From Blasia pusilla (Eukaryota): a DNA stretch of 64,000 nucleotides. The notes under the pieces are model-generated. The model saw only the letters and a program-made list of their open reading frames with translations, made no database searches and was not told the origin of the DNA. Shown here in pieces: positions 6,126 to 63,965 of this stretch. How positions within the stretch are numbered: the first letter of the stretch is position 1; each line of letters starts with the position of its first letter. The translations under genes were made by a program, and so were the position numbers. The stretch is from NCBI GenBank assembly GCA_050084515.1, contig CM114271.1, forward strand, positions 11,160,001 to 11,224,000. The letters run 5' to 3'.

Positions 6126-6127
6126 AC

Positions 6128-10596: not shown

Positions 10597-13500
10597 CCGA
10601 ATCTGACTCGTTGCAGATCGGAGTGGGTACTCGTTCTTGATGATCCACGATTGCGCCATCCTCCACTTCAGCGACCTCTTGACGCACTGGAGGTTGAAAA
10701 GCTCGTCCTCGCTCCCTCCAGTCAAAACTAAGAAAAGCCCTGTCCCACTCAGATAAGCGTCTGCAAAGGAAAACAAGAGCGCGATCTGGTCATAAGAGAG
10801 GGGAACATTCCAGTCAGGTACCCCGTCCGATGGATTCTCGTCCCACAATCACAACCCCGAGGGCAGACCAGCGATCAATAGATCCACCGCCACCTCTTTG
10901 ACCACTCCATTCACCGTCCAGGGAGCGTGCCCGTTTTGTTGAAGCTTCCGTCCTAGCGTTGTCAATTTATCAATGGCGGGTATCGACGCTTGAGAACTGA
11001 AACTTTTCAGCTCATCCAGTAAATTCGTGAGCTGACGGAGGACACTTGTCCGGGTCATTGTTTCTTTATGTCTTCCTAAGGATGATGGACTATATTCTCC
11101 TTGGGAAAACCCTGGCACCTCTCGCTTCCGCTTCTCCCGAGTCTACGGTCGGCTTGTCGGTGTCTATATGATCTCAGACTCTGGTGGGGTTTTTTTCGCG
11201 GAGGACCTGGTCCGACCCTCTCTCCCCGCTCGCCCGGACGATTCCGCCTCTGGCCTTGAATCTTCAACCTCTCTTTGGGAAGACTCGGCCTCGGAATTCT
11301 TCCCTCCCCTCGCCTTGCCTTTGAGACCCGTTGTGGATTTGTCTTTGGCTCTGCGGACCTTGGAAGCCAACTCCGCTGTCTCGAGGGCTTGCTCTTCTGC
11401 ATCTCCTTCGAAGAAGTCTTCAGGCTGCACAAAATTGGGCATGTCGTCCCATCCTGCGGCCACTGCATCATAAAGCACGCGTAAATCTTTCTCGATGATG
11501 TCTTCAGGGTCGTTGAAGTCCAGCCAAATTGGGCAATTCTCCATCTCCCAATCAGACATGTGCTGAGCCATCTCCATGTTGTACATGGAGAATGTCTCTC
11601 CATCAGGCAGCAAAGCCCACAATTTGCAGGCTGCCGGTATTTTTCCCCAGGTACCTGCATTCTTACAATGGACGAGGTACCTAAAGACCATCCGTTGGGC
11701 AGCTCTTAGTCGAACTGAATCGGCCGCCTGCTCCTGAAGATCTCGCTTCTTCTTTGCGAGATCCCTTTTGTTCCCCTCAATTTCTTCGTCAAGGTTTGCC
11801 TGAGGGAGGACCTAATCCTTGAACATCATCTTGAAACCTGGGTTTTTGATGGGCTTGTCCCAGATGTCATCGAGCCAAACCTCGAAATCTACAGCACTTT
11901 CCAGGTTTGCTTCATCCGGAATGGGCTCTATTCTTTTGAGCTCCGCTTGGAGACCGTCCAGCATGGACTTCCCAATAACCCGCAACGCGTCCCAGAACGA
12001 CCATTTGCGGAGCCAGTGGGAGATCACTAGATCAGACACACCCGGAGGATGGTGTGCCGCCCTCTTCTGGGCCTCTGTGCCCTCGAGACTGATTTTCATC
12101 AGTCAGATTCTCCTAAACTCGCTTATTCCATACAACGCAAACCGATGCACGCGATCTAGGGACACTTTCTCCCCAATCCAACCTTGCGGATCTTCATCCC
12201 TTTTCCGCTGGCGCTTGATAATCGCCTTCAGCTCCTTGTAAAACTCTGGACCAAGTTCAGGGTTGAGAATGCTGATGTAGCGCTGCATCTTGCTTGCCGT
12301 GTACTTCGTGGTTGCAGATACTGCAGCTTGGATGAATTCGGCGCAAGACTCAGACCAGATACTTTCTCCCTCCGCTCGGCTCAATGCGGCGCTCTTCTTC
12401 TTCGCGGCTGTATCTTCGACCAGCAAAGGATTGTGACGGCTGCATCTTGGGAAATAAATTTATTTGTCCAAGTCTTCTTTTTGATTTGTGCACCCTTTGC
12501 AAGCATCTGATTTACCAGGGCGTCGCCCAAGAACCCCTTGTACTCTGCCGGGTGCGTCGTAAGCACCTTCTTCACCCGATCGCAATCCTGGATCCAGTGG
12601 TGGGTGACATTCCCCTCCGATACAATCCTGCACATCCAAACTCAATAGAAGAAAATTTGTAAGGTACATGGGTTCCTGCAACACATCGAACTTCGACGGG
12701 TCATCATAGCTCAAGGTCGGATTCTAGCAACGAGCTAAATTATGCAACCCGTCGGAGTCCGACGGATTGCATTCAGATTTGTGAATGCCTGGTTTCAACC
12801 CGTCGGACTCCGACGGGTTGTCAGATAGTCCGTATCAAAAGTGAACATAGCAATGCGTCGGAGTCCGACAGGTTGCGCAATTGCAATGAAAGCTGCAATT
12901 TGACGCAAAAAAGGTAGCTTCCAACTGCCGAATGCAACCTGTCGGACTCCGACGAGTTGCTTTCAGCCAAAAACATTAAAAAAACCTCCAAAAATAGCTT
13001 CGAGTCAAGCAACCCGTCGGACTCCGACGAGTTGCTTTGGGCCAAAAACATACTAAACCTGTGGTCAGTCGAACAACTAGTCGAAGTCCGACGAGTTGCT
13101 TTCTTCAAAAAACATTCAAAAAAGGCAGCGAGACGAGCAACTCGTCGGACTCCGATGAGTTGCTTTCGGCCAAAAACATCCTAACCCATTCATCATTCGA
13201 GCAACTCGTCGGAGTCCGACGAGTTGCTTTTGGCCAAAAAAAATCCTATCCCATTCATCAATCGAGCAACTCGTCAGAGTCCCACGAGTTGCGTTTGGCC
13301 AAAAGCATCCCAACAACAGTGGTGACCCAAACAACTTGTCAGAGTCCGACGGTTTGCAGCAAGAAGAAACTTACGTGTTCATGGCATGCATGGCCATCTC
13401 CACCGTCGCCATGTGATGAGGGTATGGATGAAGGATCACTGCCTTCACGCAAAAATGTGCCTCCAAGGGGTTTGGACGCTCCTCTGCAAACTTTGTCCAC

Positions 13501-14574
13501 GCCATGAACCTGTGATTTTCATCCCAGATGAAGAAATGAAGATTCCTCATCCAGTTGAATTCTGTGCCCTCTACTTGCCTTCTGAAATCCTGGTCTCTCA
13601 TCCTCCAGATTGTGTCGAGCTTTTCCAAGTCCTCCTCCGTAACCAGGGCTTGGGTTCCATGCTCATCGTAAGGCTGAACATAGAACGGAGGGAAGCTGTC
13701 GACGTAGGATGCTGTCGCCGCCGATTGTTTGAGCTTCGCGATATCCTCGTCGGACTGAATTTTGCGGACGTATTCCATTGTCCGCAATTGGAAGAGTGGA
13801 ATTCTCGGGGCGTTGTGGCCCTCCATCAGTGCCATCTGCTTTACCACCTGTCAGAACCGGGACAAGATCAATAAGCTACACTGAATTGCCAATGAATTGC
13901 AAGATGGGCCTTCACATAATTCAAAAAACCCAGATCCTCTCTTACCCGCTCGAAGATTGGGTCGGTTTCTTGATCAGCCAACTTGTCGGAGACACCAGCT
14001 GGCAAGTCCACTGGGAACTCGTCGATTCGATAGAGGTCGATTTCTTCCATCGGGCTTGGAGACGAGGATGACTGCTCTCCTGCTTCTTCGACAATGTCCA
14101 CCATCTCCATGCTGGCGGTCCTCATGACCTCATCGTCCGTGATTTGAACTTTGGCCGTTTCCTCTATATTGATTGTGTCCCCGGACTTCATCGGGGACAT
14201 TTCCCGCATCTCAACACTTTTGGTTGGACGGGCAGGACTGTCGTCAATGGCTATTGCTTTTTCCCTCCTTGCTTTAGCCAATTATGCTCTCCTCACTGAC
14301 GCGTCCAGACGCTTCTTTCTTGCTTTTCGTCGGCGATCCTTTTCTTCACGGCCTGCGACATCTCAGCCTCTGCGTTCTGTTTATCGAGCGCCTCTTGTAC
14401 ACGTTTTGCAAGAAGCTCTTGGTTGTGCATCTCCTCTTCCCTTTCCTGCTCCTCGATTTCCTGTTGCCTTATCTCATTTGCCGAACGAGGCCCTGGAGAT
14501 GCTGACGTAGGAGTCCTAATGGACTTTGGAGTGAAGCTCCCAAACTTGTTTGCTTGAGCTTTTTTCCTCGTCAT
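10597..14574 (-). pseudogene. ParB-like plus amino-methyltransferase gene, copy A (exons 1-3; last exon absent)
   Basis: Colinear with copies B and C; FFIWDENHRFMAW and VDLLIAGLPSG motifs; GT-AG introns. Confidence 0.75.
12740..13360. repeat. Intronic array of the 27-bp palindrome GCAAC(C/T)CGTCGG-NNN-CCGACG(G/A)GTTGC
   Basis: About ten degenerate copies, e.g. 12744-12770. Confidence 0.92.
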
Positions 14575-14829
14575 TTTTCCCGGAAATGCCTCCACCTATG
14601 TCCTCGATGAATTGCTTGATCAGTCGCCTTGATAATGTCGAGATGAGTCGCCTTGATGGGTAGCTGGAATCGTCTCGCGATCGTTCGGTTGAACCGTCTT
14701 GCTCTCGTTCCCTCGTATCTTCTGGCGATGACTCGCCGTGTGAAATGCCCCTTGGTATCTGATCAGCTGCTGCACGGGAGAGCAATGGAGATCGCGAAAT
14801 GAGAAACCGGAAATGAGCGATTTCTACCC

Positions 14830-14837
14830 TATTTATA
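14830..14837 (-). promoter_or_regulatory. Putative TATA box of the ParB-MTase gene
   Basis: TATAAATA on the gene strand, conserved in all three copies (also 25410-25417 + and 63157-63164 -). Confidence 0.6.
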
Positions 14838-14924
14838 CTTTTCTAGCGGTTGGGCTAACCGTTGGGTCGCGTCGTCCTTTCGACGGCGATGTGCTGGCCA
14901 TTACGGAAGTCTGGACGTGAAAAA

Positions 14925-15545
14925 TGGCAACCCATCGGAGTCCGACAGGTTGCGTGCCTCCGCCGTCCTGGCAAGATAACGCGAGGTGCGCGAGCAACCC
15001 GTCGTAGACCGACAGGTTGAGCGCCTCCGCCTTCTTCGGACAAAAAAGGGACGTACCCGCACAACCCGTCGGAGACCGTTGGGTTGCACGCTTCCCTCGT
15101 CAAGAGTTAACAACGCGGGCTTCCCGTGCAACTCGTCGGAGGCCGACAGGTTGCACGCTTCCTTCATGTAAGTGAAACAAGGCGAGGCGCTTGCGCAACC
15201 GGTCAGAGGGCGACGGGTTGCACGCCTCGCCGTCTTTGGGCAAGAAGGTGCGGCACCCGCGGAACTCATCGGGAACAGACGGTTTGCATGCTTCCTTCAT
15301 ATAAGTGTTACACCGTGAGATAATTGGGCAACCCGTCTGATGCCGATGGGTTGCAAGCCTCCGACATCTTCGGGCAAGAAGGAGCGGTATCCGAGCAACT
15401 TGTCGAAGAGCGACGGGTTGCCTGCTTCGATCATGTTTGCGTTTGAAGGTAAGGCAGAAGCGTGCAACCCGTCCGAAGTCGACGGGTTGCAGGCTTTGCT
15501 TAGCTTGGGTTAATAGTTGAGTTACCACGACTCCGACGGGTTCCA
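14925..15545. repeat. Palindrome array in the divergent intergenic region, copy A
   Basis: Repeated GCAACCCGTC...GACGGGTTGC units at roughly 55-70 bp spacing. Confidence 0.9.
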
Positions 15546-15729
15546 ACAAAATGAAGTGTGCTTCGCAACCCACGTCTTTGCTTCCCAAATCCGGTAACAC
15601 ATTGCAACAGAATTGAATCGATTGCAACAGAATTGAATCCATTGTGTCAGACAATTTCACCTACCGAACTTCATCTTGTCAGTAAAATTCTGTCATGAGT
15701 ATCCGATTTCCTATTCATTATAAATTAAA

Positions 15730-15812
15730 AATTCACATTCTCATTCTCATTCTCATTCTCATTTTGATTCTGATTCTGATTCTGATTCTGATTCTGATTC
15801 TGATTCTCACTC
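15730..15812. repeat. Compound microsatellite (ATTCTC)n(ATTCTG)n
   Basis: Directly visible just upstream of the transposase start codon. Confidence 0.9.
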
Positions 15813-15836
15813 TCCTCCCGTACAAAATTTCTGGGA

Positions 15837-18800
15837 ATGGATAATTATGTGAAGCTCACTTGTGGCAGTCATCTGGCGGCCCTTCCTCAATCAGAAATCG
15901 TTCGACCGCAAGCTCTTGAGTCTTTCATAGTAGTGGATGAAATTTTTTTCTCTCTGTTCGATTTCTTCTCCAAATTGGAACCATCTTTGTATCCAAGGAT
16001 GTTAGGGTGGACGGTACGGAGGACATAATAGGTGAGACAGTCCAGCCAGTGACTGTAGACGGTAAAGTATGGAATCTCCTACCTCTAGCAAATGTCCAAT
16101 ACAGAGTTTACGGCCTGCCCCTGAATTCGACTCCAACTTCATACGCTCGTAACAATGTTGTTCTTCCTGAAGACATTCCGGATGTTATCAACCTCAGTGG
16201 ATTTGTCGAACACCAACCGGTCCCTCTGTCCGCCTACTCGTTCCTCTTGCGAGTATCAAGCAATAGTTTGCTTTCATCTCTGGCCTTGAAAATGTTCGAG
16301 CACATTCTTGTCGACGAGCTGCCGCCCACGTACGATGGTAATTGCATTTTTGAGTTGCCTCCACTTGCTGCTCCTGCTCAAAAGAAAGATGGAGGATGCC
16401 TGAAGGGTATGGACAGAAAGTCTGATTGTCATCGATGGTGCAGGCTTCAACGGACTAGTGCTTCAATTCCAGATGGTCCTTGGATTGTCTCCCGCCGCCA
16501 ATGCGTTGGAGCCTTGGAGTGTAGAAGTCCAGCATGCTCGTATCTAGAGCGCAACGGTCGAGTCAACACGTCGCAATTCCCCCCCAAGAATGCAGAAACT
16601 CCATACGAGGTCGGTGCCACCATACCACCGGGAGGCCATCGATGTCCTCATTGTCAGGCATCGCCCTTCTGCGTTGGACCGTGTCCTGCATACATATTTT
16701 TCATTGTCCACAACTTGGGCTCCATGTCAGAGTACACAAGGCTGGCAATTCATGTTGGCTCCCACACTCATCCTGTGATCAATGCAATTGAGAGACACAT
16801 CAAGGAGGATGTGGCAAAGAAAGTTGCCGAGGTCTACAAAAACTCTCCGGGTTCAAAGCCCCGAGTGATCAAGCTCACAACGGCATCACAAATTTGTGAA
16901 CAATTTCTTGGAATCCTTGGACAGGGCGAGATCACGGCAGCTGAGGAGAAACAACTCTGGGAAAATCTCGCTGATCCTGAATGCTTTCGGAATTTGCTAC
17001 GTCAAATACGAGTTCTGGATGGAAAGACGGCCAAAATGGATGCCATCGCTAGAATCAAGGCCAACTCCAGATTTCCATTCATTCAGAGATGGCAGTTGAT
17101 GGGCCAAGGAGGCGAGGGATCCAGGGCCTATGTCTTCAAAATATCAACCACAGGTCCGTCGAGTGGCCTTGATCTTATAGATCGAATGAGGGAAGGGGAA
17201 GATCTTTATGGCAGCTGGGTAAGCTTTGATATTTGCTATAGAGTGTTGAACGGATGGTTGATGATGGGTGCTCATGTTTATGACCATATGGAGAAGGGAC
17301 TCAAAACTATATTTGTCTGTGAAGTAAAGGCAGAAGACATTGGCAGTTTGAAGATGTGCTGGTTACTCTTATTGGAGGTGGTGAAGGAAAACAAAAGGCC
17401 ACCTCCGGAAATTTATGGGTTCATGGCGGACAATGCACAACCTGGGTGGATTGCTATCCGGGAAGTGTTCTGGGGTGGAGAGGTTCAGCCGGAGAGGGAA
17501 AGGTCGGATGCTTTCCATTGGCAACAGTCTGTGACCCGGTACACCAAATCTTGCATCAAGGAGAATAAGAGGACATCAAGGAGAATAAGAGGACAGAGCA
17601 TGTTACTCTACTCTAACGCTGCAAGGACAACAAAACCTTGAAGGAGGCCATGGAATGCCAGGAAGAACTTCATGGGTGGTGGAGGAAGCATGTGATTGAG
17701 GGGAAGTATAAAGAGTTGTGCTCTTGGTTGAGTTGGTGGATTGTACGTATGAGACAATGGGGAAACTTCATGCGGCAGGTGAGTTCACTATTTTGTCTTG
17801 TCAAGCTCACGCTGAGAATTGTTTGTAAAGTTGCAGCTCAAGTTGAGAAGCGTGGGAACTGTTGGGATTTCAAACCGAAGAAACCAAGCAAGCTGTCGGA
17901 TGCGACGGGTTGCATCTAGAATTTTGGTGCAACCCGTAGACAAGTATGCAAGTCGCATATATACATGGCCTGCAAATAGTTCAACCCGGATGGGTTTCGG
18001 ATGACTTGCACTTGGATCTTCTAGAGTGGCCATCGGTTCTTGCAACCCGTCTGAATCCGACGGGTTGCAGTAAGTGGGTTTAGGGTTGCAACACGTCGGG
18101 ACCCGACGGGTCGCAGAGTCGTTCATGGGATGCCTCGGCCTTGCAACCCGTATGAATCCGACGAGTTGCAGTAGGTGGGTTTAGGGTTGCAACACGTTGG
18201 GACCCGACGGGTCACAGAGTCGTTCATGGGATGCCTCGACCTTGCAACCCGTCTGGTTCCGACGGGTTGCAGTAGGTGGGATTAAGGTTGCAACACGTCG
18301 GGACCCGACGGATCGCAGAGTCGTTCATGGGATGCCTTGGCCTTGCAACCCGTCTGGTTCCAACAAGTAGCTTATTTCTTTGATTCCTGAGTTATTTTCG
18401 TTCCCTTCTAACATTGCCGTCGTTGCAGGGATTGAACATTCATGAAAATGCCCGCTGCCCCAACACAAATGGAGCAGAAAGTGTTCATTCCTCCTCGAGG
18501 TCCTCACAAGCATGCCAACAAATTTCACTTGTGGAGGCATGCCAACAAGACCAGGTGAGAGCAATGCTACAGTCTGCAGCATCCCATATCTTCCTCACAA
18601 AAGGCATAACAAAAGGAAGGGGGCCGTCCATCTACGAGCTCTATGTTAGGGCGGCTGTGAGATCTGGTGATGAAAAAATGTATGTGGAAGCCTTCAACAG
18701 GTGCGTAGCTTGAACTTCCCTCGAGCAAGACGTACATATTGGTGGGGATATTCGTGGGCGGGTTTCAAGACGTCCCATACAGATGGTGGTAGAGCAGTCC

Positions 18801-19931
18801 GAGCGAGACTCGTGGAGACCAGATAAGTATCTTGACTTCAGGCAGGTGAAGAGGCAGCATCGAGGAACGAATCCGGTGATTGATTTGGATGAGGAAATTA
18901 CGCCGCCTCGGTACTCGGGGACCCCGGACCCGTCCCAAATCCGTGATGGAGTTACTTCTCCAAAATCAGTGAATGTTTTATTTCAAAATCCCTCCGTTGG
19001 TGGAAGTTTGCAATATCCTGTCACTGGGGTGGTTCAACAATATGGGATTCCGGTAATGTAGGTGGATTGCAACCTAAAACGGTGGCATATATCTCGGAGC
19101 AACCCAGGACGTGGACCCACCTACAGGGCAGGATCTGATGGCATTAGGAGAGCATGCGGCACTTTCCTAAATAAGAACTGTACAAGGACTGGACGACCAC
19201 TGCCTGGGTTTTGGGGACTCAAAACCTTTGATCGTTTCACGAGGACCGGGGATCAATTGAAGTACTTCTTCTTCCCAAATGAATCTTGCGCTTTTCGAAA
19301 GTCTTATCCGGTTGCCATTGGAGCTCCGGGGAATACCCCCACGATTTGGCCCATCGCTGCAGGTACGAACTGCACTCAAGACGAAGTGGACAATCTTACA
19401 AGTGCCGGTTTCAGACTTGTAGACGGGGGAAGTTCAGAGCATGTTTGCATTACAGAGACCTTCGCATTTCGTATTCAACCCAAGATTGATGTCAACATGT
19501 ACCCGGAGAAGGTGGATGATCTCAATCCACTATTTCTGTTTGAGTGTAGAAATGGGGTGAAGAGAAACAGAATGTGTAGGCCAACGGTGGAGAGAGCAAA
19601 GCGAATTGCATGAGCTCGGGAGGCAAAAATGGAGATCATCGCCACGAAAGATGTCTTGAGTGGCAATGGAATAGGAAGGATGTATTGGGTCAGGAACAAC
19701 ATTGTAAATTCAAGTGTCACAGGGATGTATGTGGTGCACATCTGTTGCTTTCCCACATGTTCATGTGATGACTTTGTCCAAATAGAGACAAGTGGCAAAA
19801 GGTATTTCCCTTGTTAGCATATGTACTATGTGTTGCTCGTAGTTTTAAGAGAGTCGGAGGTAGGAGTAGGAATCCACCAACCAATTCTATCCCTCAAAGA
19901 AGTGCAAAGTATTTTAAACAAACCACTTTGA
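15837..19931 (+). pseudogene. MULE-type DDE transposase with N-terminal GCM/WRKY-like zinc domain and C-terminal SWIM finger, copy A
   Basis: CVGALEC...CPHC...C...HVGSHTHP; WVSFD; FMADNA; DAFHWQQS (CxxH-like); NTNGAESVH; CSCDDF...C*HMYY (SWIM). Intron 17779-18428 (GT-AG). Frameshifts, including a 20-bp duplication near 17554-17593. Confidence 0.8.
18041..18360. repeat. 101-bp tandem repeat, about 3 units, in the transposase intron, each unit carrying two palindromes
   Basis: Unit starts at 18041, 18142, 18243 and 18344 (partial). Confidence 0.9.
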
Positions 19932-20279
19932 GGATGCAAAATGAGGTTTTAGAGTGTACTTTTATTTTTCCTGAACCTTCACTTTGAGCTTGAACTCTAT
20001 TCAGCCCGGGGCAAATGATAGATTTTTTCCAGACCTTGGATGGAAAAAGTGACTGGTTCCACACTTATGATTCCACTGATTTTTCAGTTTTCTAAATTTT
20101 GTGCAATTTGCAACTCGTTGGACTCAGAGGGGTTGCCAAAATATGGAAGAGGAAAAAAAACCGTGGGACTGCTTAATAACTGAACAAAAAAGTGCAAAAA
20201 AATTCACACAAAAATTTTCCTCTCTTCAACCCAACGGAAACTCTCTTAAAAAAAAGTCTCTATTTCGGTTGAAGGTAGT

Positions 20280-20363
20280 TTCTCTCTCTCTCTCCTCTCT
20301 CCTCTCTCCTCTCTTCCTCTCTTCCTCTCTTCCTCTCTTCCTCTCCTCTTACCGCACCTCCCC
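20280..20363. repeat. Transposase-side terminus: (CCTCTCTT)n followed by ACCGCACCTCCCC
   Basis: Same CT-rich subterminal repeat as the other end (31850-31923 and 56704-56770). Confidence 0.7.
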
Positions 20364-23300
20364 AATACATCCTTCCTATTCCATTGCCACTCAAGACATC
20401 TTTCGTGGTGATGATCTCCATTTCTGCCTCCCGAGCTGATGCAATTTGCTTTGCTCTCTCCACCGTTGGCCTACATATTCTGTTTCTCTTCACCCCATTT
20501 CTAGACTCAAACAGAAATAGTGGATTGAGATCATCCACCTTCTCCGAGTACATGTTGACATCAATCTTGGGTTGAATACGAAACGCGATGGTCTCTGTAA
20601 TGCGAACATGCTCCGAACTTCCTCCGTTTATGAGTGTGAAACCGGCACTTGTAAGATTGTCCACTAAATCTTGAGTGCAGTTTGTACCTGCGGCGATGGG
20701 CCAAATTGTGGGGGTATTCCCCGGAGCTCCCATGGTAGCCGGATAAGACTTCCAGAAAGCGCAAGATTCATTTGGGCGGAAGAATTACTTCAATTGATCA
20801 CCGGTCCTCGTGAAACGATCAAAGGTTTTGAGTCCCCAAAACCTAGGCAGTGGTCGTCTAGTCCTTGTACAGTTCTTATTTAGGAAAGTGCCGCATGCCC
20901 TCCTAATGCCATCAGATCCTGCCCTGCAAGTGGGTCCACGTCCTGGGTTGCTCCGAGATATATGCCACCGTTTTAGGTTGCAATCCACCTGCATTACCGG
21001 AATCCCATATTGTTGAACCACCCTAGTGACAGGATATTGCAAACTTCCACCAACGGAGGGCTTTTGAAATAAAACATTCACTGATTTTGGAGAAGTAACT
21101 CCATCACGGATTTGGGACGGGTCCGGGGTCCCCGAGTACCGAGGCGGCGTAATTTCCTCATCCAAATCATTCACCGGATTCGTTCCTCGATGCTGCCTCT
21201 TCACCTGCCTGAAGTCAAGATACTTATCTGGTCTCCACGAGTCTCGCTTGGACTGCTCTACCACCATCTGTATGGGACGTCTTGAAAGGCGCCCACAAAT
21301 ATCCCCACCAATGTGTACGTCTTGCTCGAGGGGAGTTCCTGCTACGCACCGGTTGAAGGCTTCCACATAGAGTTTTTCATCACCAGATCTCACAGCCGCC
21401 CTGACATAGAGCTCGTAGATCGAAGGCCCCCTTCCTTTTGTTATGCCTTTTGTGAGGAAGATATGGGATGCTGAAGAGTGTAGCATTGCTCTTGCCTCGT
21501 CTCGTTGGCATGCCTCCACAAGTGAAATTCGTTGGCATGCTTGTGACAACCTCGAGGAGGAATGAACACTTTCTGCTTCACTTGTGTTGGGGCAGAGGGC
21601 ATTTTCATGAATGTTCAATCCCTGCAACGACGATAATGTTAGAAGAGAACGAAAATAGCTCAGAAGTCAAAGAAATAAGCTACCTGTCGGAACCAGACGG
21701 GTTGCAAGGCCGAGGCATCCCATGAATGACTCTGTGACCCGTCGGGTCCTGACGTGTTGCAACACCCAGGAAACACCTACTGCAACCCGTCCGATTATGA
21801 CGGGTTGCAAGAACCTTTGGCCACTCCGGGCTGGAAGATCCAAGTGCAAGTCATCCAAAACCCATCTGGGTCGAACTATTTGTAGGCCTTGTATACATGC
21901 GACATGCAGGCCTTATATACGGGTTGCACCAAAATTATGGATGCAACCCATCGGTTTCCGACTGGTTGTACACTCACGCAACCCGTCCGTTTTCGACGGG
22001 TTGCACACTCGGGCAACCCGTCCCATCCGAAAAATTGCTTGGTTTCTTCGATTTGAAATCCCTATAGTTCCCACGCTTCTCAACTTGAGCTGCAACTTTT
22101 CAAACAATTCTCTACGTGGGCTTGACTAGACGAAATAGTGAACTCACCTGCCGCATGAAGTTTCCCCACTTGTCTCATACGCACAGTCCACCAACTCAAC
22201 CAAGAGCACAACCCTTTGTACTTCCCCTCAATCGCATGCTTCCTCCACCACCCATGAAGTTCTTCTTGGCATTCCATGGCCTACTTCAATGTTTTGTTGT
22301 CCTTGCAAGGTTGGAGTAGAGTGACATGCTTTGTCCTCTTATTCTCCTTGATGCAAGATTTGGTGTATGGAGTCACAGACTGTTGCCAATGGAAAGCATC
22401 CGACCTTTCCCTCTCCGGTTGAACCTCTCCACCCCAGAACACTTCCCTGATAGCAATCCACCCAGGTTATGCATTGTCCGCCATGAACCTACAAATTTCT
22501 AGAGGTGGCCTTTTGTTTTCCTTCACCACCTCCAATAAGAGTTACCATCACATCTTCAAACTGCCAACGTCTTCTGCTTTTACTTCACAGACAAATATAG
22601 TTTTGAGTCCCTTCTCCATATGGTCATAAACATGAGCACCCATTGTCAACCATCCGTTCAGCACTCTGTAGCAAATATCAAAGCTTACCCAGATGCCGTA
22701 AAGATCCTCCCCTTCCCTCATTTGATCTATAAGATCGAGGCCTCTCGACGGACATGTGGTTGACATTTTGAAGACATAAGCCCTAGACATACGCCTCCCT
22801 GGCCCATGAACTACCATCTCTCAACGAATGGAAATCTGAAGTTGGCCTTGATTCTGGCAATGGCATCCATTTTGGCCGTCTTTCCATCCAGTACCCGTAT
22901 TTGACGCAACAAATTCTGGAAGCATTCAGGATCAGCGAGAAATGTGAGATTTTCCCATAATTGTTTCTCCTCAGCAGCCGGGATCTCGCCGTGTCTAGGG
23001 ATTCCAAGCAATTGTTCACAAATTTGTGATGTTGTTGTGAGCTTGATCACTCCGGGCTTTGAACCCGGAGAGTTTCTGTAGACCTCGGCAACTTTCTTCA
23101 CCACATCCTCCTTGATGTGTCTCTGAATTGCATCCGTCATAGGATGAGTGTGGGAGCCAACATGAACTGCTAGCCTTGTGTACTCTGACGTGGAGCCCAA
23201 GTCGTGGACAATGAAAAATATGTATGTAGGACACACTCCAACGTAGAAGGGGGATGCCTGACAATGAGGACATCGATGGCCTCTTGACGGTATGGTGGCA

Positions 23301-24160: not shown

Positions 24161-24554
24161 TCCGAGAAGATTCCATCGGGAGGAGACAAAGAATTGGTAT
24201 CAGAATGAGAATGTTTAATTTCTAGTGAATAGGGACTCAAATTCTCCTGACAGACTTTGACCGACAAGATGAAGTTTGGTAGTTGAAAATGTCTGACACA
24301 ATGGATTCAATTCTGTGGCAATGTGTCCAAGTCAGGTGAGTTGCAAAATTTTGGAATCAGAGATGTTGGTTGTGAAGCATGCACTTCTTTTTGTTGGAAC
24401 CCGTTGGAGTCCGTTGGGTTGGTACCCCCTTCTTGCCGACCAAAGGTTTTTTGAGTCAATTTTGCTAGCATCAAACACAAGATATCGCTTGCATATGCTA
24501 AGGCAACCAATCGTTGGGGACTTTTGCAGGATTTTCCAACTCAGGGTAGATCTT

Positions 24555-54915: not shown

Positions 54916-55066
54916 CATTCCCTTCTATGACGATTGTGCAATGTTCAATCCTCTGTTAGAATTCATATCTCATGCAACCGGTCGGTTTCCAACAGGTTAC
55001 AAAAGACTCTAGAAGGAACCTTTCAGCTCCAACTTAACTTTACAGAAATTAGATTTAAAAGAACAA

Positions 55067-56703
55067 AGGATGAGGCACCACCCGCACTCTACCATCCTCC
55101 CAAACTTGCAACACGTGTGCTCCCTCCCACCAGAACCGTCTGGCTTGCTGTAGGATCCGATCCCCCTCTCTAGCACCCACTGTGCTCGCGACGCTGCCTA
55201 TAGGGAAATACTCCAAGACCACTCCATCGTCGTGAATGTCTCGGCCACCTGTCGTCTCCTCACCGGCTTGTGGATCTAAGGACTCTCCATCATACCTCGC
55301 CATCGAGGTCTCAGCAATCTGGCTCCCCGTAGCCAACAAGCCCACATAGGCTGACGCGTGTCATCCTGGCACCAACTCCTCATCACTCTCACCATGCCAA
55401 CGAGCTCCAATCACATCTCGCTGACTCAGGCATGGGTTAAGGCTCAAACCATCTGCATCTTGGTTGAGCGTCCCAGGTCTATGCACCACCTGGAAGTCAT
55501 ACTCTTGCAACAAAAGAGCCCACCTTGCAAGCTTCCCTGTAAGCTTGTCAGACTCCATCAACCACTTAAGTGGCTGATGATTAATAATGATGGTAAAGGG
55601 ATTGCCAAATAGATAACATCTGAAATGTGCGACAGCTCATACTACAACCAAGCACTCACCCTAAAACGAGCTATACTTCGCCTTTGTAGCGTTGTTCGAG
55701 CAACTAGCATAAGCCACCACAAACTCTCTACCATCATTGTCATGCTGGGTGAGCACCGCTCCAAGCCCCAACATGCTCCAATTGGTATGCAATTGGAAAG
55801 GATGCCCCCTGATATGGGCACGGACGTCAATCTTTCCTTAAGTAGTTCAAATGCTCTCTCATGCTCATCCCCCCGGTGCCACTCCTGATCCACCTTGGTC
55901 AGCAAGGTTAGCGGCTTCACAATCAAACTAAAACCCTTGACGTACCGTCGATAGAAGTTTGCCAATCCCATGAATGCACGAAAGCGACTCATATCTGTAG
56001 GGCGTGGAATGCCTGAAATAGCCTCTACCTTCATCTGCTGTATACCAAGGCCCCCTGGGTATATCGTATGACCCAAGTACTCAATCTGGTTGTAAGAGAA
56101 CTTTCACTTGCCTTGATGTAGCTTCAGCCCATGTAACTGCAATGGTCGAAACACCTCCTCTAGATGTTGCCCATGCTCCTCAACCGTGGCGCTAAAGACT
56201 ACGATGTCATCAATATAAGACCTAGCAAAATCCAGACCTGCTAAGATCCTATCCATGATCCTCTGAAACTCAGCCAGGGCGTTCTTTAACCCCAATGGTA
56301 AGAACCGCCACTGGTACAAATTATCCTTCCCGTGAGGATCGATGCCCCAAAATACGGTCTTCTGTTTGTCCTCTGATCTCATAGGCAGCTGATGGAATCC
56401 GGCTCGCAAATCCAATGAACTTAAGATCTTTGCATGCCCAATCGCATCAAAGATCTCCTCACGGGTGGGCATGGCACACCTATCGGACTTTGTCTGTCGA
56501 TTGATAGGTCGGTAATCTCCATACATCCGCCTATCCGTCCACTTGCCATGCACATCCTTCTTGGCGGGCATGAGAGGGGCAAATGGATACTCTCCATGCG
56601 ACATCTCCACAAGTCCTGCTCCAACCAAGTCCTAGCTCCTACTCTGAATCAGATCCCTCTCCATGTCACTGTACCTATAGGGTTGTCGGAAGATTGGCAG
56701 GTC
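55067..56703 (-). pseudogene. DNMT-Gypsy family RT-RNase H fragment
   Basis: PAKKDVHG, GDYRPINR, YIDDIVV, ESDKLTGKLARW; closely similar to 2350-4010. Confidence 0.9.
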
Positions 56704-58510
56704 GGGGCTGGTATCCTGGCAGGAGAGAGTAAGAGAGGAGAGGAAGAGAGGAAGAGAGGAGAGTCTCTCTTCAAAAAAAAGGGCCAAATCCGCCTCCTCT
56801 CTTCAAAACTTTTTGACATATTTGAAATTTTTGTTTGCTTTCAAATTCAGGAAATCTTTAGAAGAGAGTATTTAGTGGTCCACATTTGGCCCTAAAAAAA
56901 CCTCCTCTTTCCTAGGGGCGAGAAAAAAGGAGACATCATAAGACCACCCTAAACATTTTTCCATCACTCTCCATGTGAGCCTAAGTTTCTTAACATTCCC
57001 TGTCTCGGTCAACAAAAAGCAGTGCCCTTGGTATTTTTGTTGGAGGACCACCCGGATGGGTACCTCTCTTTTTGCAGGGATTTTTGCCTGCATCATGGCC
57101 TCCCCTAAATTGCCCCATAACCAACTTTTTGTCGGTTATGAATGGTGTCTGCTCAAGAAAGTTGGTCTTGAGGAACAAATAAGATCCTTAGGCTGAGAAA
57201 CCGAGAAACTGCACCCCTCCCAACCCGTAAGAAAGCTCACCATAAGAAAGGAAAGATTTTTAGCAGTGATTTTCTTCCACCCTGCACCCACAACGATCTA
57301 ACGGGTTGGGAATCCGAAATGGCAATCCCACAGGTAGTAGGAATCCTGCACATCTTAGACAAGAAAAGAAGCCTACAACTGGTTGGACGAATGAAGGGGA
57401 ACGAGCCAAAAGTCAAGAAGCCCGCCACAATGCGCCAGAAGTTGGTCTCACCAGGATAGAGTCCGATCACTCAAGCAGTCAACCTGTCGAAATCCGACAG
57501 GTTGCTTGGAAATGGTTAAAAAGTTGCAGTGGGCAAAAAGCAAAAAGTCGGAATCATATGGGTTGCAGAATTGTAATTCTGAGTAGCTAAAAGAACACAA
57601 TCCACAAGTCCAAAAACATATTCCAGCAAACTTTTACAAACACCATTATGGGTTGAAAAAATCTCGTCCTTTATTACCTCCGAAGGAACCTCGGAAATGT
57701 ACATTTCACCTAGTCTATGATTTCTTCATCTACAAATTTACTCCTAACTCTCCTCGGTGACAGTACCAAAGGAATGTCCTGGGATTCAAGTGTCTCCTCT
57801 GGCCGATTGTAGACGAGGATCGAAAATGTTGGCGAATTCGGGAGCCTTGGCCCCTCCCTAGGTACACCATAACGGTCCCATGTAACCTGTCTCGAGTCCC
57901 ACCGCCTTCCTCAGCAGTATACCTTGTACGCTCTGCAATGTTACACCCATCCGGTATCAATATCTGCTCCGTCTCCGGTAATACCACTATGGCAACCGCA
58001 CAGGTAGAAGGAATCCAACACGTCTGAGAGAAGAAAAGAAGCCTACGCCTGCCTTTACGAGTTGAGGGGAAGGTGCCAAGGGAAGAAGCCCGCCAGACTG
58101 CCTCTTAAGTTGGACCAACAGGGAAAGGGTCCGATCAGGCAACCTGTCGGAATCAGACAGGTTGCCTGGAGGTGGTAAAAAGGGTGCAGTGGTCAAAAAG
58201 CGAAAAGTTGCAAGGAGGAGAAATCCGACAGGTTGCAGTGGTCATAAAGTGAAAGTTGCAAGCAGGAGAAATCCGACGGGTTGCAAAGTAGAAGTCCGTG
58301 GAGTACATAGACGATCACATTCGAAAAGACAAAATGATCAGCAAACATTTACAAGCACCACCATCGATCGAAAAAATCTTCTGCTTTATATCATCGGAAA
58401 AAAGCTTGGAACTGTACATTTGATCTATTCTATGAAATCTTTTGCCTCATCATCAAATAACTCCCTACTCCAAATGCTGTAGTCAAGCAGGGTCGTTGAG
58501 TTCTTTGAAC

Positions 58511-61500
58511 TCACTTGTCATCGTCCGAGAGCTCTTGCAGAATCACTTTCGGCCTTGCCCTCCCGATTTTGGGAATCGTTGGAAGTGACGATGGAGTCAC
58601 TACCAAGGGTGGCTGTGGAACCGGAGCTCTCGGATTCGGTGGAGAGTTGTACGCCCCAACGAGCCTTTCGTATTCTGTCTTTGCCTCCTTGCAAAGGTCA
58701 AACAGTTCCTGCCTTCCCTCGAGGCAGAGAATGTTCCTGCCACTCTGCCAGGCGCCTTTGATACTTGCCCTTGAAAGTCCCACTAAGTCGAACACCAAGT
58801 CACCTGGCCTTGAGCAGAGCTCGATGAGCGTTTGCATCAGGGCTGGCGACTTTTCCCTTCCTCCCAGAAGTGGGGTACTGTCTTGCATGTAAATTCCCGG
58901 GGGGGAATTGTACAAACTATCTAAGCTGTACCCATCTGAGCATGGATCCACAAGATCCTGGATCTTGAACACCTGGAAATTGTGCTCGGGCCGAACAAAG
59001 CAGTAGACGTAGGAGTGGTCCATCTGTAAATCAGCATGTTGGAAACAATGTCAGAAACTAAAGAAGTCGCCTTGAGAAAATTTTCAATAACTGACTTTGG
59101 ATCAACCTGTCGGAGTCCGACGGGTTGTTTTGTCTCGGACCAACCCGTCGAAACCCGGCGGGTTGCGATTCTTTAGGTTTTCCCGTTGATTTGGTTTTTG
59201 GATGCAACCCGTCGGAAGGCGAGGAGTTGCTGGCCTAGAGCAGCCCATACTCTCCTGAGAGCAACCCGTCGCTATCAGACGGGTTGCATCCAAAAACCAA
59301 AATCAACTGGGAAAACCCAAAAGCAACTACAACCCGTCGGGTTTCAACGAGTTGCAGGTACACCGCGGTTTTCCCTGTGTATGTGGGAAAGATGCAACCC
59401 GTCGGCAATCGACGGGTTGCTCTTAGCCGAGCATGGGCTGCTCTAAGCCAGCAACCCGTCGCCTTCCGACGGGTTGCTCACGGACAAAAAAAAACCCAGA
59501 TTGACTCTCATTCTACACATCATTATAAGATAATTGAAATTATTGTACAGGAATTGAGCCTTACCCGAATCTGACTCGTCGCGGATCGGAGTGGTACTCG
59601 TTTTTTATGATCCACGATTGTGCCGTCCTCCACTTTAGCGACCTCTTGACGCACTGGAGGTTGAAGAGCTCGTCCTCGCTCCCTCCAGTCAACACCAAGA
59701 AGCAGCCCCTGTCACTCGAGATAGGCGTCGCAAAGGAGAACAAAAGTGCAACTGGTCATAAGTGAGCGGCACATTCCACTCGGTACCTCGTCCAAATGAT
59801 TTCGCCCCAAAGTCGCAACCCCGAGGGCAGATCGGCGATCAAGAGATCCACCGCAACCTCTTCGACCACTCCATTCACCGTCCAGGCAGCGTGCCCATTT
59901 TGTTGGAGCTTCCGTCCCAGCGTTGTCAATTTTTCGATGGCTGGTGTCGACGCTTGAGAACTGAAGCTCTTCAGCTCATCCAGTAAAGGAGTGAACTGAA
60001 GGAGGACGCTTGTTCGGGTCGTTGTTTGTCTGTGTCTTCCCAAGGATGATGGGTTGTATTCTCCTTGGGACAACCCGGGCACCTCTCGCTTCCGCTTCTC
60101 CCTAGCTTGGGGACGGCTTGTCGGGGTTTCTATGACCTCGGATTCTGGTGGCATTTTTTTCGCCGAGGACCTGGTCCGACCCTCTCTCCCCGCTTGTCCG
60201 GACGATTCCGCCTCTGGCCTTGAATCTTCAGCCTCTCTTTGGGAAGACTCGGCCTCTGAATTTTTCCCTCCCCTCGCCTTGCCTTTGAGACTCGATGTGG
60301 ATTTGTCTTTGGCTATCCGGACCTTGGAAGCCAACTCAGCTGTCTCGTGGGCCTACTCTTCTGCATCTCCTCCGAAGAAGTCTTCAGGCTGGACGAAATT
60401 GGGGATGTCGTCTTGTCCTGAGGCCACTGCATCATGAAGCACTCGCAAGTCCATATCCGTTATGTCTTCAGGGTTGTTGAAGTCGAGCCAAATGGGGCAA
60501 TTCTCCACCTCCCAATCGGACATGTGCTGCCCCATCTCCACGTCGTACATGGAGAATGTCTCTGCATCCGGCAGCGAAGCCCACAATTTCAAGGCTACCG
60601 GTAATTTTCCCCACGTACTTGCGTTCTTACACTGGACGAGGTACCTGAAGACCATCCGCTGGGCAGCTTTTAGTCAAACAGAATCGGCCATCTGCTCCTG
60701 TAGATCTCGCTTCTTCTTCGCTTGATCCCGTTTGTTCCCCTCTACTTCTTCGTCAAGCTCTGCCTGAGGGAGGACGAAAACCTTGAACATTGGATGAATT
60801 TGGCGCGGTCAAATGCAGATACCTTCTCCCTCGCTCGGCTCGGTCTTTTGCGGCGCTTTTTCTTGCGGCTTTGTATCTTCGACCAGCAAAGGATGGTTAC
60901 GGCTGCATCTTGAGAAATAAACTTGTTTGCCCAAGTTTTCTTCTTAATCTGAGCACCCTTTGCAAGCATCTGATTGACAAGGGCATGCCCTCGTCAATCA
61001 GATGCCCAAGAACCCCCTGTACTCTCCCGGGTGCGTTGTAAGCACCTTCCTCACCCGATTGCAGTCCTGGATCCAGTGGTGGGTGACATTCCCCTCCGAT
61101 ACAATCCTGCACATCCAAACTCAACCCGTCAGGAAATAACATGGGTTCCTGCAACCCGTCGGACTCCAACGGGTCGTCACAGCTCAAGGTCGGATTCTAG
61201 CAACGAGCTAAATGATGCAACCCATCAGAGTCCAACGGATTGCATTCAGATTTGCTAATGCCTGGTAAGCAAACCGTCGGAGTCCGACGGGTTGCTCGAT
61301 AGGCCGCCTTGTGAGGGTGTTTTTTTAAGAATGCAACTCGTCGGACTCCGACGAGTTGTTGAGGATCGAGGTTTAGAAGGTTTTTCCCCAAAGCAACCCG
61401 TCGGACTCGGCGGGTTGCTTTGGGGAAAAACCTTCTAAACTGCGATCCTAACAACTCGTCGAGTCCGACGAAGTTGCATTCTTCAAAAACATCCTCACAA

Positions 61501-62882
61501 GCGGCTTTGTCAGCAACCCGACTCGGACTCCGACGGTTTGCTTTGGGCCAAAAACTAGTTAAATCTATGTTCAATCAAAGAAGTCGTTGGAGTCCGACGA
61601 GTTGCAATCTTAAAAAAACATCCGAAAAAGCGTGCAGTCCAGCAACCCGTCGGAGTCCGACGAGTTGCAAAAGTGTTAAAGATACTCACGTGTTCATGGC
61701 ATGCATTGCCATCTCCACCGTCGCCATGTGATGAGGGTATGGGTGAAGGACCACTGCCTTCACGCAGAAATGTGCCTCCAATGAGTTGGGCCGCTCCTCC
61801 GCAAACTTGGTCCACGCCATGAACGTGTGATTTCCATCCCAGATGAAGAAATGCAGATTCCTCATCCAGCTGAATTCCGTGCCCTCAACTTGCCTTTTGA
61901 AGTCCTGGTCTCGCATCCTCCAGAATGTGTCGAGCTTTTCCAAGTCCTCCTCGGTAACCAGAGCTTGGGTTCCATGCTCGTCGTAAAAGGTGAACATAGA
62001 AGGAGGAAAGTCATCGCGTAACGAGGATGCCGCCGCCGATTGATTTAGCTTCGCGATGTCCTCGTCGGACTGAATTTCGCAGACGTATTCTATTGTCCGC
62101 AATCGGCAGAGTGGAATCCTCGGGGTGTTGTGGCCCTCCATGAGTGCCATCTGCTTTACCACCTGTCAGAACCGGGACAAGAGGAATAAGCTACACTGAA
62201 ATCCCAATGAATTGCAATTCACATAATTAAAAAAACCCAGAACCTCTCTTACCCGCTCGAAAATGGGGTCGGTTTCTTGACCTGCTAACTTGTCTGAGAC
62301 AGAGGGTGGCAAATCGACTGGGAACTCGTCGATCCGATAGAGGTCGATGTCCTCTGCCGGGCTTGGAGTCGAGAATGACCGCTCTCCGGCTTCTTTGGCC
62401 ATGTCCACCATCTCCACGCTGGCGGTCCTCATGACCTCGTCGTCATCGATTTCAACTTCTGTTGTTTCCACTATGTTGATTGTGTCCCCGGACTTTGTGG
62501 GGGACATTTCCCGCATCTCAACACTTGCGGTTGGACGGGCTGGGCTATCGTCAATGGCTATCGCTTTTTCCCTCCTCGCTTTAGCCAATTCTGCCCTTCT
62601 CACTGACGCGTCCAGACGCTTCTTTTCTCTCTTTTCGTCGGCGATCCTTTTCTTCAAGGAATGCGACGTCTCGGCCTCTGCGTTCTGTTTATCTAGCGCC
62701 TCTTGAACACGTCTCGCAAGAAGCACTTGGTTGTGCATCTCCGCTTCCCTTTCCCGCTCCTCGATTTCCTGCTGCCTAATTTCATTCGCCGAACGAGGCC
62801 CAGGAGAAGCTGACGCAGGAGTCCTAATGGACTTCGGAGTGAAGCTCCCAAACTTGTTGGCTTGTGATTTTTTCCTCGTCAT
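58511..62882 (-). pseudogene. ParB-like plus amino-methyltransferase gene, copy C
   Basis: Intact last exon 58511..59023 (EKSPALMQTLIELCSRPGDLVFDLVGLSRASIKGAWQSGRNILCLE); VDLLIADLPSG; FFIWDGNHTF; about 0.5-kb deletion in exon 3 near 60790. Confidence 0.78.
61150..61670. repeat. Intronic palindrome array, copy C
   Basis: e.g. GCAACCCGTCGGAGTCCGACGAGTTGC at 61642-61668. Confidence 0.9.
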
Positions 62883-63253
62883 TTTTGCCGGAAATGCCTC
62901 CACCTATGTCCACGAAGAATTCCTTGATCAGTCGCCTTGCTGATGTCGAGATGGGAACTCGAATCGCCTTGATGGTTAGCTCGAATCGTCCCGCTATCGC
63001 TCGGTCGAACCGTCTCGCTCTCGTTCCCTCCTATCGACTCGCGATGTGTGGCCGTGTGAAATGCCCCTTTGTATCTGATCAGCTGCTGCGCGGGAGAGTG
63101 AGGAGTGAGGAATGAAGATCGCAAAATGAGAAACCGGAAATGAGCGATTTCTGCCCTATTTATACTTTTCTAGCCGTTGGGCTGACCGTTGGGTCCCGTT
63201 GTCCTTTCGACCACGACGTGCCGGATGTTACGGAAGTCCGGACGTGAAAAATG

Positions 63254-63965
63254 GCAACCCGTCAAAGTCTGACAGGTTGTGCGGCTCCGCCATCCTAGGT
63301 ACGTTCGCCACATGCGCGAGCAACCCGTCGGAGACCGACGGGTTGAGCGGCTCCGTCGTCTTCAGAAAAGAACACGAGGTACCCGCGCAACCCGTCGGAG
63401 ACCGACATGTTGCGCGCCTCCGCCATCCTGGGTACATCGCCACGTGCGTGAGCAACCCGTCAGAGACTGACGGGTTGAGCGCCTCTGTCGTCTTCGGAAA
63501 ACAACGCGAGGTACCCGCGCAACCCGTCGGAGACCGACATGTTGCGCGCCTCCGCCGTGTTTGGGACGGGAACGGGACGTATCTTGGGCAATCCGTCGGA
63601 GACCGTTGGGTTGCACGCTTCCCTCATCAAGGGTTAGGAACGAGGGCTTCCCGTGCAAGTGGTCGGAGTCTCGCTGGGTGCACCACAAGGCGAGGCCCTT
63701 GCGCAACCCGTTGGACGGCGACGGGTTGCACGCCTCGCCGTCTTTGGGCGAAAAGGCGAGGCACCCGCGACACTCGTCGGGAACAGACGGTTTGCACGCC
63801 TCCGGCATCTTTGGGCAAGAAGGATTGGTATCCGAGCAACTCGTTGGAGAGCGACGGGTTGCTCGCTTGGACAATGTTTAGCAGAAGCGTGCAACCCGTC
63901 CGATGCCGCAGTTGCGTGACCGGTTAGCCGGGTAATTTCGAGTTACCAGGACTCCGACGGGTTCC
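63254..63965. repeat. Regularly spaced palindrome array upstream of the ParB-MTase gene
   Basis: Units start at 63254, 63320, 63387, 63452, 63519 and 63588 (65-69 bp period). Confidence 0.92.

Follow-up and report, generated by a model that had tools for sequence, protein, structure and literature searches.

The non-coding DNA of a transposon of Blasia pusilla (Eukaryota) related to Mutator-like elements (MULEs) carries tandem arrays of a 27-bp palindrome that has the look of a selected cis-site. The transposon lies in a 64,000-nucleotide stretch of GenBank assembly GCA_050084515.1 (contig CM114271.1, positions 11,160,001 to 11,224,000 of the forward strand), referred to here as the window and numbered from its first letter. 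An earlier model-made annotation of this stretch (the original prediction) had proposed an element with two genes, and the element is real: one gene encodes a MULE-like transposase and the other, divergently oriented, an accessory protein with a ParB-fold domain and a methylase-like C terminus (hereafter the ParB-methylase). With somewhat better than even confidence, we favor the explanation that the palindromes are selected binding-site arrays for an element-encoded protein of whatever kind, and their extreme local enrichment supports this, with 83 sites in the window where none are expected, 82 of them within copies of the element. Taken as a whole, the original prediction is partly supported; the palindromes look like selected cis-sites, and the candidate binders are weighed below.

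The palindrome has the consensus GCAACCCGTCGGA-N-TCCGACGGGTTGC, with 53 matches at three or fewer mismatches in the window, and at this threshold the pattern of 12-bp arms around a 3-nt center gave no match in any of 100 dinucleotide shuffles. Allowing up to six mismatches with a 3-nt center yields the 83 sites, against none in each of 20 Markov-1 simulations; when the center length is freed there are 87 non-overlapping sites, 82 of which have a 3-nt center. The palindrome described in the original prediction is thereby confirmed, and its geometry of 12-bp arms and a 3-nt center is sharpened to 13-nt arms around a single nucleotide, A13 being present in 57 and T15 in 56 of the 83 sites. The edges of the sequence logo are sharp, at 0.86 to 2.0 bits per arm column and no more than 0.34 bits in the flanks. 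Unpaired arms are rare (solo matches number 3 out of 49 for the left arm and 5 out of 50 for the right), and this near-constant pairing fits a dimer site. Several CG and CCG sites per palindrome had also been noted, and the consensus indeed holds four CpG and four CCG/CGG sites. The consensus center reads GANTC, the site of CcrM/HinfI-type beta-class adenine methylases. We rejected GANTC as a defining methylase site, because it is found in only 29 of 82 sites and the center is weakly conserved (columns 12-16 of alignment A3); GAGAC replaces it in the intergenic arrays.

Self-comparison of the window reveals three decayed partial copies of one element: copy A (~10556-20280), copy B (20361-31923) inverted relative to A, and copy C, oriented like A, which starts at 56704 and runs off the window end. 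Counts of sites with a 3-nt center follow these copies closely, with 27 in 10100-20200 (copy A), 29 in 20201-31950 (copy B), 26 in 56701-64000 (copy C), none in the retroelement at 1-10000, and one in the retroelements of 31951-56700. Only a single site therefore lies in the 34.7 kb of retroelement DNA, and the overlap of the 82 element sites with coding intervals supported by tblastn is zero, in agreement with the original claim that essentially no palindromes occur in exons or retroelements. That claim went further, holding that the palindrome saturates the non-coding parts of the element; the restriction to non-coding DNA stands, but saturation does not, because the ~780 to 850 bp next to the B/C end (B 31923, C 56704) are palindrome-free.

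The arrays occupy five compartments per element, all non-coding, and these agree with the introns of both genes, divergent promoter and 3' region named in the original prediction. The introns and promoter are assigned from collinearity with proteins of the liverwort Riccia sorocarpa and from the orientation of open reading frames (ORFs), and are thus predicted features. Each array repeats a unit in tandem, and the periods observed are 35, 46/55, 64, and 67 bp. The region between the two divergent start codons holds nine palindromes in copy A (14927-15490, period 66-69 bp, within a 1.26-kb region), 13 in copy B (24396-25320, period 67 bp with a 134-bp super-unit), and nine in copy C (63254-63862, upstream of the ParB-methylase gene, where the copy leaves the window). 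The intron after the ParB exon varies in unit number, with ten palindromes in copy A (12744-13357, period 51-84 but mostly 64 bp), a remnant of two or three in copy B (26886-27001), and eight in copy C (61151-61668, two of them with 2- or 5-nt centers); in copy A this array is bracketed by tblastn matches to residues 174-321 (13808-13377) and 328-394 (12608-12411) of the Riccia protein P0103. The intron splitting the methylase domain has five palindromes in copy B (29099-29378), bracketed by tblastn segments ending at 28949 and starting at 29534, and seven in copy C (59102-59477), where the spacers are mutually unrelated (arm identity 0.81, spacer identity 0.29). The 3' flank of the ParB-methylase gene contributes four palindromes beyond the stop codon in copy B (30297-31072, two pairs with spacings of 70-71 bp) and four in copy C (57479-58284). 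The fifth compartment, directly after the first transposase exon, has eight palindromes in copy A (17888-18371, two alternating variants, periods 46/55 bp, between the end of transposase homology and a quasi-ORF at 18384-19817) and six at the counterpart position in copy B (21679-22038, one with a 2-nt center). A single palindrome (20110-20136) lies in a stretch specific to copy A (19689-20281).

The repeats have some further features. In the copy B intergenic array (24692-25106), the 134-bp super-unit consists of two alternating spacer types with 83% matches. Several spacers in the units inspected contain an imperfect inverted repeat of their own; by eye, the possibility that this second palindrome is a decayed copy of the main motif was judged unconvincing. 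Open frames of 169 to 265 amino acids run through arrays at 63130-63927 (+), 15100-15660 (-), and 12998-13507 (+), with peptides such as QPVGLRRVA; these are by-products of a stop-free repeat and not genes.

The cis-site idea draws support from conservation of the arms, which lies far above that of the spacers, as fits a selected site. Among aligned units within arrays the arms are 0.71 to 0.86 identical and the spacers 0.29 to 0.67. In a fixed gap-free register, in which every unit of each regular run was taken so that ascertainment bias is small, the corresponding values are 0.78 to 0.88 and 0.49 to 0.54 (Mann-Whitney p <= 2.6e-4 in four of four arrays), and arm columns outside CG/CHG sites reach 0.90 to 0.97. 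Between compartments, spacer identity is 0.31 to 0.48, compared with 0.42 +/- 0.05 for shuffled spacers, and in orthologous arrays of copies A, B, and C the spacers keep 0.54 to 0.63. The methylase-intron arrays have spacers at the shuffle level even internally (0.37 to 0.43), with arms at 0.71 to 0.81. Because the spacers are unrelated between compartments, the palindrome is the sole unit that is conserved and common to all five.

Compensatory changes between the arms, which the original prediction had suggested examining, are not in excess. There are 18 double-changed, pair-preserving cells against a shuffled mean of 17.0, a count reached by 215 of 500 shuffles, and 81.1% of cells are paired versus 81.9% after shuffling; this test is weak, because most differences reflect decay after insertion, and its outcome points to sequence read-out and not to a hairpin. 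Mismatch rates per site are 0.18 at CG, 0.23 at CHG, and 0.11 elsewhere, and C>T or G>A changes make up 66-68% of mismatches at CG and CHG sites, which is the decay that methylated, silenced copies would show.

Outside the window, the specificity of the motif is known from non-host collections only, which were searched with a transition-tolerant version that matches eight of the window sites. This version returned five single-site loci among 241 million metagenome records and three single-site loci in 596 Gb of prokaryote genomes, both about the chance level, and had no match in IMG/VR.

The ParB-methylase gene can be followed through all three copies. Exon 1, encoding a charged N terminus that starts MTRKK, lies at 13868-14574 (-) in copy A (ORFs 13868-14281 and 14293-14595; equivalent in copy C, 62166-62903), next to the ParB N-terminal-fold exon, a 159-amino-acid ORF at 13371-13850 (-) with DENHR where other copies have DGNHR or DGNHT. 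In copy B, exon 1 and the ParB exon span 25679-26866 (+), with an in-frame stop at 25874-25876 and tblastn support at 26417-26866, and in copy C they span 61686-62882 (-), with the ParB exon at 61686-62165 and exon 1 at 62166-62882, again supported by tblastn. The exons for the middle region and the N-terminal half of the methylase, which carry stops and frameshifts, are found at 10556-12641 (-) in copy A (truncated at 10556; tblastn with P0103 and P0012, 10594-12620; homologous to B 29119-26912) and at 27038-29075 (+) in copy B, where VADLPSGL occupies the motif IV position. The C-terminal methylase exon lies at 29501-30065 (+) in copy B, up to the stop codon, with motif I, FDLVGLSGG (PF01555, E 0.0084, A2 alignment), and lies at 58511-59050 (-) in copy C (PF01555, E 0.0049, 17.3 bits against a cut-off of 26.7; phrog_3008, DNA methyltransferase, E 1e-4).

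The 159-amino-acid ParB exon has 100 relatives at E <= 1e-3; of 18 that were looked up, ten are hypothetical proteins of R. sorocarpa and eight are metagenome, ENA, or Logan proteins, and no relative was found in the viral contig collection. At the sequence level the exon has no Pfam, PHROG, or NCBIfam match and, with profile A1, no PDB match, and 20 relatives are likewise without a Pfam family. Its AlphaFold2 (AF2) model (predicted local distance difference test [pLDDT] 87.6) behaves differently, as almost all of the Foldseek matches listed are ParB/Noc/KorB/Srx-like, including PadC, SbnI, and free serine kinase (best E 7.7e-3), and VIA aligned it to Caulobacter crescentus ParB (7bm8_A, residues 42-137) with Z 9.5 and a root-mean-square deviation of 1.9 A over 95 residues; 14 chains reached Z >= 8. 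The N-terminal domain of the accessory protein thus has a predicted ParB/sulfiredoxin fold. The A1 alignment shows no variation at D110, N112, or H113 and next to none at G111 and R114, and these residues sit at a strand-to-helix junction in the model; by position, not by residue alignment, DGNHR is a putative counterpart of the nucleotide-binding motif (strand-Gly-x-x-Arg-helix), GERR in ParB or GCHR in Srx. At least 17 relatives of the ParB exon end one residue after the position matching window residue 158 (...AMHxxN), and the intron that follows therefore seems, from these sequences, to be old and shared across the family. The ~600-amino-acid middle region has a best Atlas score of 0.76.

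At the C terminus, the resemblance to the motif-I part of N6_N4_Mtase (PF01555) is weak in the window itself (E 0.0049, below the curated cut-off), and PF01555 also matches 10 of 15 A2 members (best E 1.9e-7) and is precomputed for 4 of 26 Riccia homologs; PHROG DNA methyltransferase families match the C-terminal methylase region at E 1e-4 to 4e-9. These matches point to a predicted S-adenosylmethionine (AdoMet)-binding motif I region. The canonical motif IV, (D/N/S)PP(Y/F/W), is missing from 12 of 12 relatives, which weakens the idea that the self-marking suggested earlier works by methylation. All 12 have D-[LM]-[PS]-[ST]-[GR] about 165 residues before motif I, equivalent to motif IV by position only. 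An hhalign comparison of A2 with a canonical bacterial methylase aligned motif I alone (E 0.75, not significant), phmmer searches of the PDB with P0104 and P0011 found no match, and the AF2 model of the methylase relative P0104 (15 sequences, pLDDT 46) was too poor for a fold search. The 26 homologs of near-full length to the methylase domain come without exception from Riccia, and their spread over many contigs fits a repeated, mobile gene; R. sorocarpa has dozens of ParB-methylase paralogs with 40-86% identity to P0104. Canonical motif IV is lacking throughout this Riccia family (P0103, P0012, P0104, P0108-P0116, P0123), several members of which bear the UniRef name 'Trimethylguanosine synthase', a label probably carried over from nothing more than the AdoMet-binding region.

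The first large exon of the transposase gene lies at 15837-17835 (+) in copy A, where a 566-amino-acid open frame covers 15941-17641 and tblastn homology reaches 17835, and at 22158-24160 (-) in copy B, with a 462-amino-acid ORF (22811-24199) that starts MDNYVKL. We found two homologs only, with 37-40% identity, and no longer relatives; the N-terminal region of the ORF is Cys/His-rich and conserved in both. There is no Pfam match at E <= 0.1 and a PDB search gave no meaningful match, and the MULE assignment comes from the nearest Atlas cluster (score 0.95, 176 of 256 features shared), 61% of whose members have the MULE domain PF10551, which is a lead and not an alignment. The original prediction named a GCM domain in the transposase; for a GCM/WRKY identity of the zinc region, neither Pfam nor PDB sequences gave a match. 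Downstream, four contiguous same-frame ORFs separated by single stops (18384-19817, +, copy A) are 93.6% identical to B 21811-20361 and have no homolog and no Pfam family. From their sequence they are probably a decayed downstream exon or gene, and together with 20361-21666 (-) in copy B they may be the decayed remains of either a third gene or the transposase's C-terminal exon. The ORF at 19614-19817, near the end of copy A, contains a SWIM-like 'CSCDDF...PC' pattern, without Pfam support. No ParA-type ATPase was noted among the element ORFs examined, for which no systematic scan was made.

In the explanation that we favor, the palindromes are candidate cis-acting protein sites that would have been kept by selection in an active lineage of this MULE-like transposon. 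Tandem duplication would have multiplied them in the promoter, introns, and 3' flank, giving arrays that resemble operators or centromeres. An element-encoded, sequence-specific protein would coat these arrays as a dimer, which would let the family recognize its own copies and would provide a dense, private landing pad over promoter and introns. Coating could regulate the divergent gene pair, could protect the element from host CG/CHG methylation or mark it, or could do both. Targets of VANC21 are reported to have the same layout, with arrays between divergent starts and within introns of both genes (PMC5735166). As the putative binder we tentatively prefer the ParB-methylase, at odds well below even, because its gene accounts for three of the five compartments, because accessory proteins do the binding in VANDALs, and because ParB-family proteins use arrayed palindromes. 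It would be expected to act as binder, clamp, or occluder and not as an ordinary amino-methylase, since the canonical catalytic tetrapeptide is missing throughout the protein family. Almost as probable a candidate is the transposase, although taken by itself unlikely, and a role for another factor seems very improbable. We regard as speculative, and unlikely to be right in full, the more specific proposal of a eukaryotic nuclear transposon with a ParB-parS-like system, in which a ParB-CTPase-fold protein with an altered methylase module would load as a dimer on sopC-like arrays, spread, and shield or mark the element against CG/CHG methylation.

Several observations weigh against a binding-site explanation, or against the ParB-methylase as the binder. 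None of the 83 sites is a perfect copy, and nine have one mismatch. A solo palindrome-like site with four mismatches (54974-55000) lies in retroelement-flanking DNA, with flanks that lack element homology. Five arrays in three related copies amount to few independent observations, the gap-free column test treats related units and neighboring columns as independent, and tandem repeats are common in the non-coding DNA of transposons. Each of the three gene copies is broken by stops, frameshifts, or deletions, including a ~530-bp deletion in copy C, and when orthologous copies are compared, arm identity does not exceed that of the remaining DNA (0.874/0.891, 0.829/0.872, and 0.854/0.853, arms first), so that there is no present-day constraint at these loci; any constraint acted in the active lineage and not at the dead loci of the window. 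At 27 bp, the palindrome is also much longer than the sites that methylases usually recognize. Finally, the original prediction reasoned from ParB proteins loading on parS, but the matched part is, by the model, the predicted N-terminal CTPase-type domain and not the parS-reading helix-turn-helix, and no DNA-binding domain or helix-turn-helix was found after the ParB fold with Pfam, PDB sequences, or Atlas (best score 0.76, an unnamed cluster).

These points bear differently on the alternatives. If the transposase is the binder, which is a sub-case of the favored explanation and on its own unlikely, the palindrome would be recognized by its Cys/His-rich N-terminal region, and the arrays would be transposase-dependent regulatory or synapsis sites. 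The conservation of that region in both homologs and the MULE character of the nearest Atlas clusters are in keeping with this, as are the positions of two arrays, of which one follows the transposase exon immediately and the other lies just upstream of the transposase start; moreover, AtMu1 transposase alone is reported to activate cognate copies sequence-specifically, and Spm TnpA to be transposase-derived, in a 2026 preprint (10.64898/2026.08.24.746577). Against it stand the palindrome-free DNA at the sole definable end of the element, the failure to find a terminal inverted repeat, the lack of a Pfam or PDB sequence match for the putative GCM/WRKY zinc region, and the location of three of five compartments inside or 3' of the ParB-methylase gene. 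Alternatively, nothing may read the palindrome at all, and the arrays may be neutral minisatellites expanded by slippage or unequal exchange where repeats are tolerated, with arm conservation produced by repeated re-expansion or by alignment and ascertainment effects. We consider this doubtful, even though the sites are tandem-repeat units whose number differs in the same intron (10, about 3, and 8 in copies A, B, and C), exons would not tolerate arrays in any case, and the window copies decay freely through C>T changes at CG/CHG. Under neutral expansion arms and spacers should diverge to the same extent, or the CpG-rich arms should decay faster, which is at odds with the arm and spacer identities of the gap-free register, and one expanding unit could not produce five compartments with spacers related only at the shuffle level.

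A structural role, as DNA cruciforms or RNA hairpins affecting replication, splicing, or small-RNA production, is very unlikely. Each site could form a GC-rich stem of 12-13 bp, the arrays lie in predicted introns, and some spacers hold a second imperfect inverted repeat, but pair-preserving double changes are not in excess, and both arms are conserved in sequence beyond what complementarity would demand. A stem of 12-13 bp is also short for Dicer-type processing. Scarcely more likely is an independent or host-side origin, in which a factor of the host would target the palindrome, or in which the palindrome would be a very small mobile insertion that has colonized the non-coding DNA of the element. 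The solo site in unrelated DNA and the mutually unrelated spacers of the methylase intron are what repeated insertion would give, yet the regular 64-67-bp periods fit duplication and not insertion, 82 of the 83 sites are in the element, and the motif is at chance level in the metagenome, IMG/VR, and prokaryote collections.

The arrangement can be compared with several known systems, of which the VANDAL elements with their VANC proteins are closest in layout. In VANDALs, according to the accessible part of the published account, the VANC-bound motif accumulates as tandem repeats in introns of VANB and VANC and upstream of VANA, and is not reported from exons (PMC5735166). [quoted passage not shown] Unlike the 9-bp, one-orientation motif of VANDALs, the motif here is a 27-bp palindrome, and the ParB-fold/methylase-like fusion is unrelated to VANC; further, binding and loss of methylation have been shown for VANC, whereas here they are proposed.

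In appearance, the arrays resemble sopC of the F plasmid, where a 43-bp repeat occurs 12 times in tandem, every unit contains a 16-bp inverted repeat, and the ParB-family protein SopB is the binder (PMC3177203). Shared features are tandem direct repeats with an inverted-repeat core, beside a ParB-family gene, on a mobile element (PMC3177203). In place of one 12 x 43-bp array with a 16-bp core, however, the eukaryotic nuclear transposon has five arrays, their units being 46-67 bp long and the core 27 bp, and unlike the sopC/SopB system it has no ParA partner among the element ORFs examined and no ParB helix-turn-helix that we could find. KorB of plasmid RK2 is a CTP-dependent repressor of the ParB family with palindromic operators spread over the plasmid. 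It too is a ParB-fold protein from a mobile element with palindromic sites at the element's own promoters, but it has a defined DNA-binding domain and 13-bp operators, whereas the likeness to the window protein is one of fold in the N-terminal domain only (Z 8.1-8.4; 8qa8/8qa9). Among plant transposons, En/Spm (through TnpA) and Ac carry subterminal repeat motifs. They resemble the present element in having many copies of a short element-specific motif (here a candidate) for an element-encoded regulator, which in the case of TnpA is described as transposase-derived (10.64898/2026.08.24.746577), and they differ in that the window sites are internal, with none within ~780 bp of the definable end.

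Eukaryotic Dam-type methylases with a helix-turn-helix of ParB type are described from chlorophytes and chytrids, together with an FHA-fused clade in haptophytes and ParB-linked DNA methylases of prokaryotes and phages, in the survey by Iyer et al. (PMC4738411). The ParB-methylase shares with these a ParB-type module, an N6/N4-class methylase module, and an origin in mobile elements (PMC4738411). It differs from them in combining a ParB N-terminal fold, the ~600-amino-acid middle region, and a beta-class-like methylase without (D/N/S)PP(Y/F/W), on a MULE-like transposon; its named relatives are all in R. sorocarpa, and in the available part of the list of Iyer et al. neither this architecture nor the transposon context appears (PMC4738411). 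Liverworts also have host N4-cytosine methylases of prokaryotic type, as stated in a separate study (10.1101/2021.02.12.428880). In our analysis the putative system would work like VANDAL/VANC and looks like sopC/SopB, but would be a member of neither, because its protein is unrelated to VANC and shares only the ParB N-terminal fold with SopB and KorB.

A limited literature search found no description of a ParB-methylase gene on a Mutator-like element. Transposon self-recognition, whether for anti-silencing or for autoregulation, has so far been detailed mainly for Arabidopsis VANDAL/VANC and for Spm TnpA. If the explanation that we favor is correct, the Blasia element would add a second, unrelated case, in which the site is palindromic and far longer and the ParB-fold/methylase-like protein is bacterial or phage-like in type, and would suggest that protein-plus-site systems arise repeatedly in Mutator-like elements. 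Were anti-silencing its function, it would be a second, independently evolved VANC-like device, and were the ParB-type module the one that works on eukaryotic chromatin, it would be the first ParB-type loading-site system found there. The case is readily testable, since the candidate site is defined to the base and a liverwort with a sequenced genome has many members of the protein family.

The organization of the copies has additional features. Copies A and B are arranged tail to tail as an inverted pair (10556-19689 versus 29119-20361) with a step in identity at ~15530-15785; the inner part (15785-19689), with the transposase and downstream region, is 91-93.6% identical, and the outer part (10556-15753), with the ParB-methylase gene and the intergenic arrays, 79-86%. 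The step could reflect recombination between subfamilies or conversion from arm to arm. One end of the element is set by the homology between B and C, and no target duplication (9-11 bp in MULEs) was definable at the element ends. Comparison of that end (31923/56704) with the other side of the element, among window copies that are all incomplete, gave no terminal inverted repeat other than a CT/GA-rich microsatellite of the (GAGAGGAA)n type, which is present at the outer ends of B (31856-31906) and C (56721-56763) and at the A/B junction (20281-20349). The B/C homology begins just outside this microsatellite, at GGGGCTGGTAT.

A fourth fragment of the ParB exon (10091-10554, -), with DGNHR intact and 69% amino acid identity to copy A, abuts the truncated 3' part of copy A at 10556, and the junction points to a rearrangement or a nested fragment. 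Retroelements of the copia and gypsy types lie around and between the copies. In the flanking segments 36375-39368 (+), 46781-48319 (-), and 55642-56631 (-) we recognize a copia-type element (gag-pre-integrase, rve, and RVT_2) and fragments of gypsy-type pol (zf-CCHC, protease, and RVT_1), one RVT_1 fragment ending 6 bp from the end of copy C.

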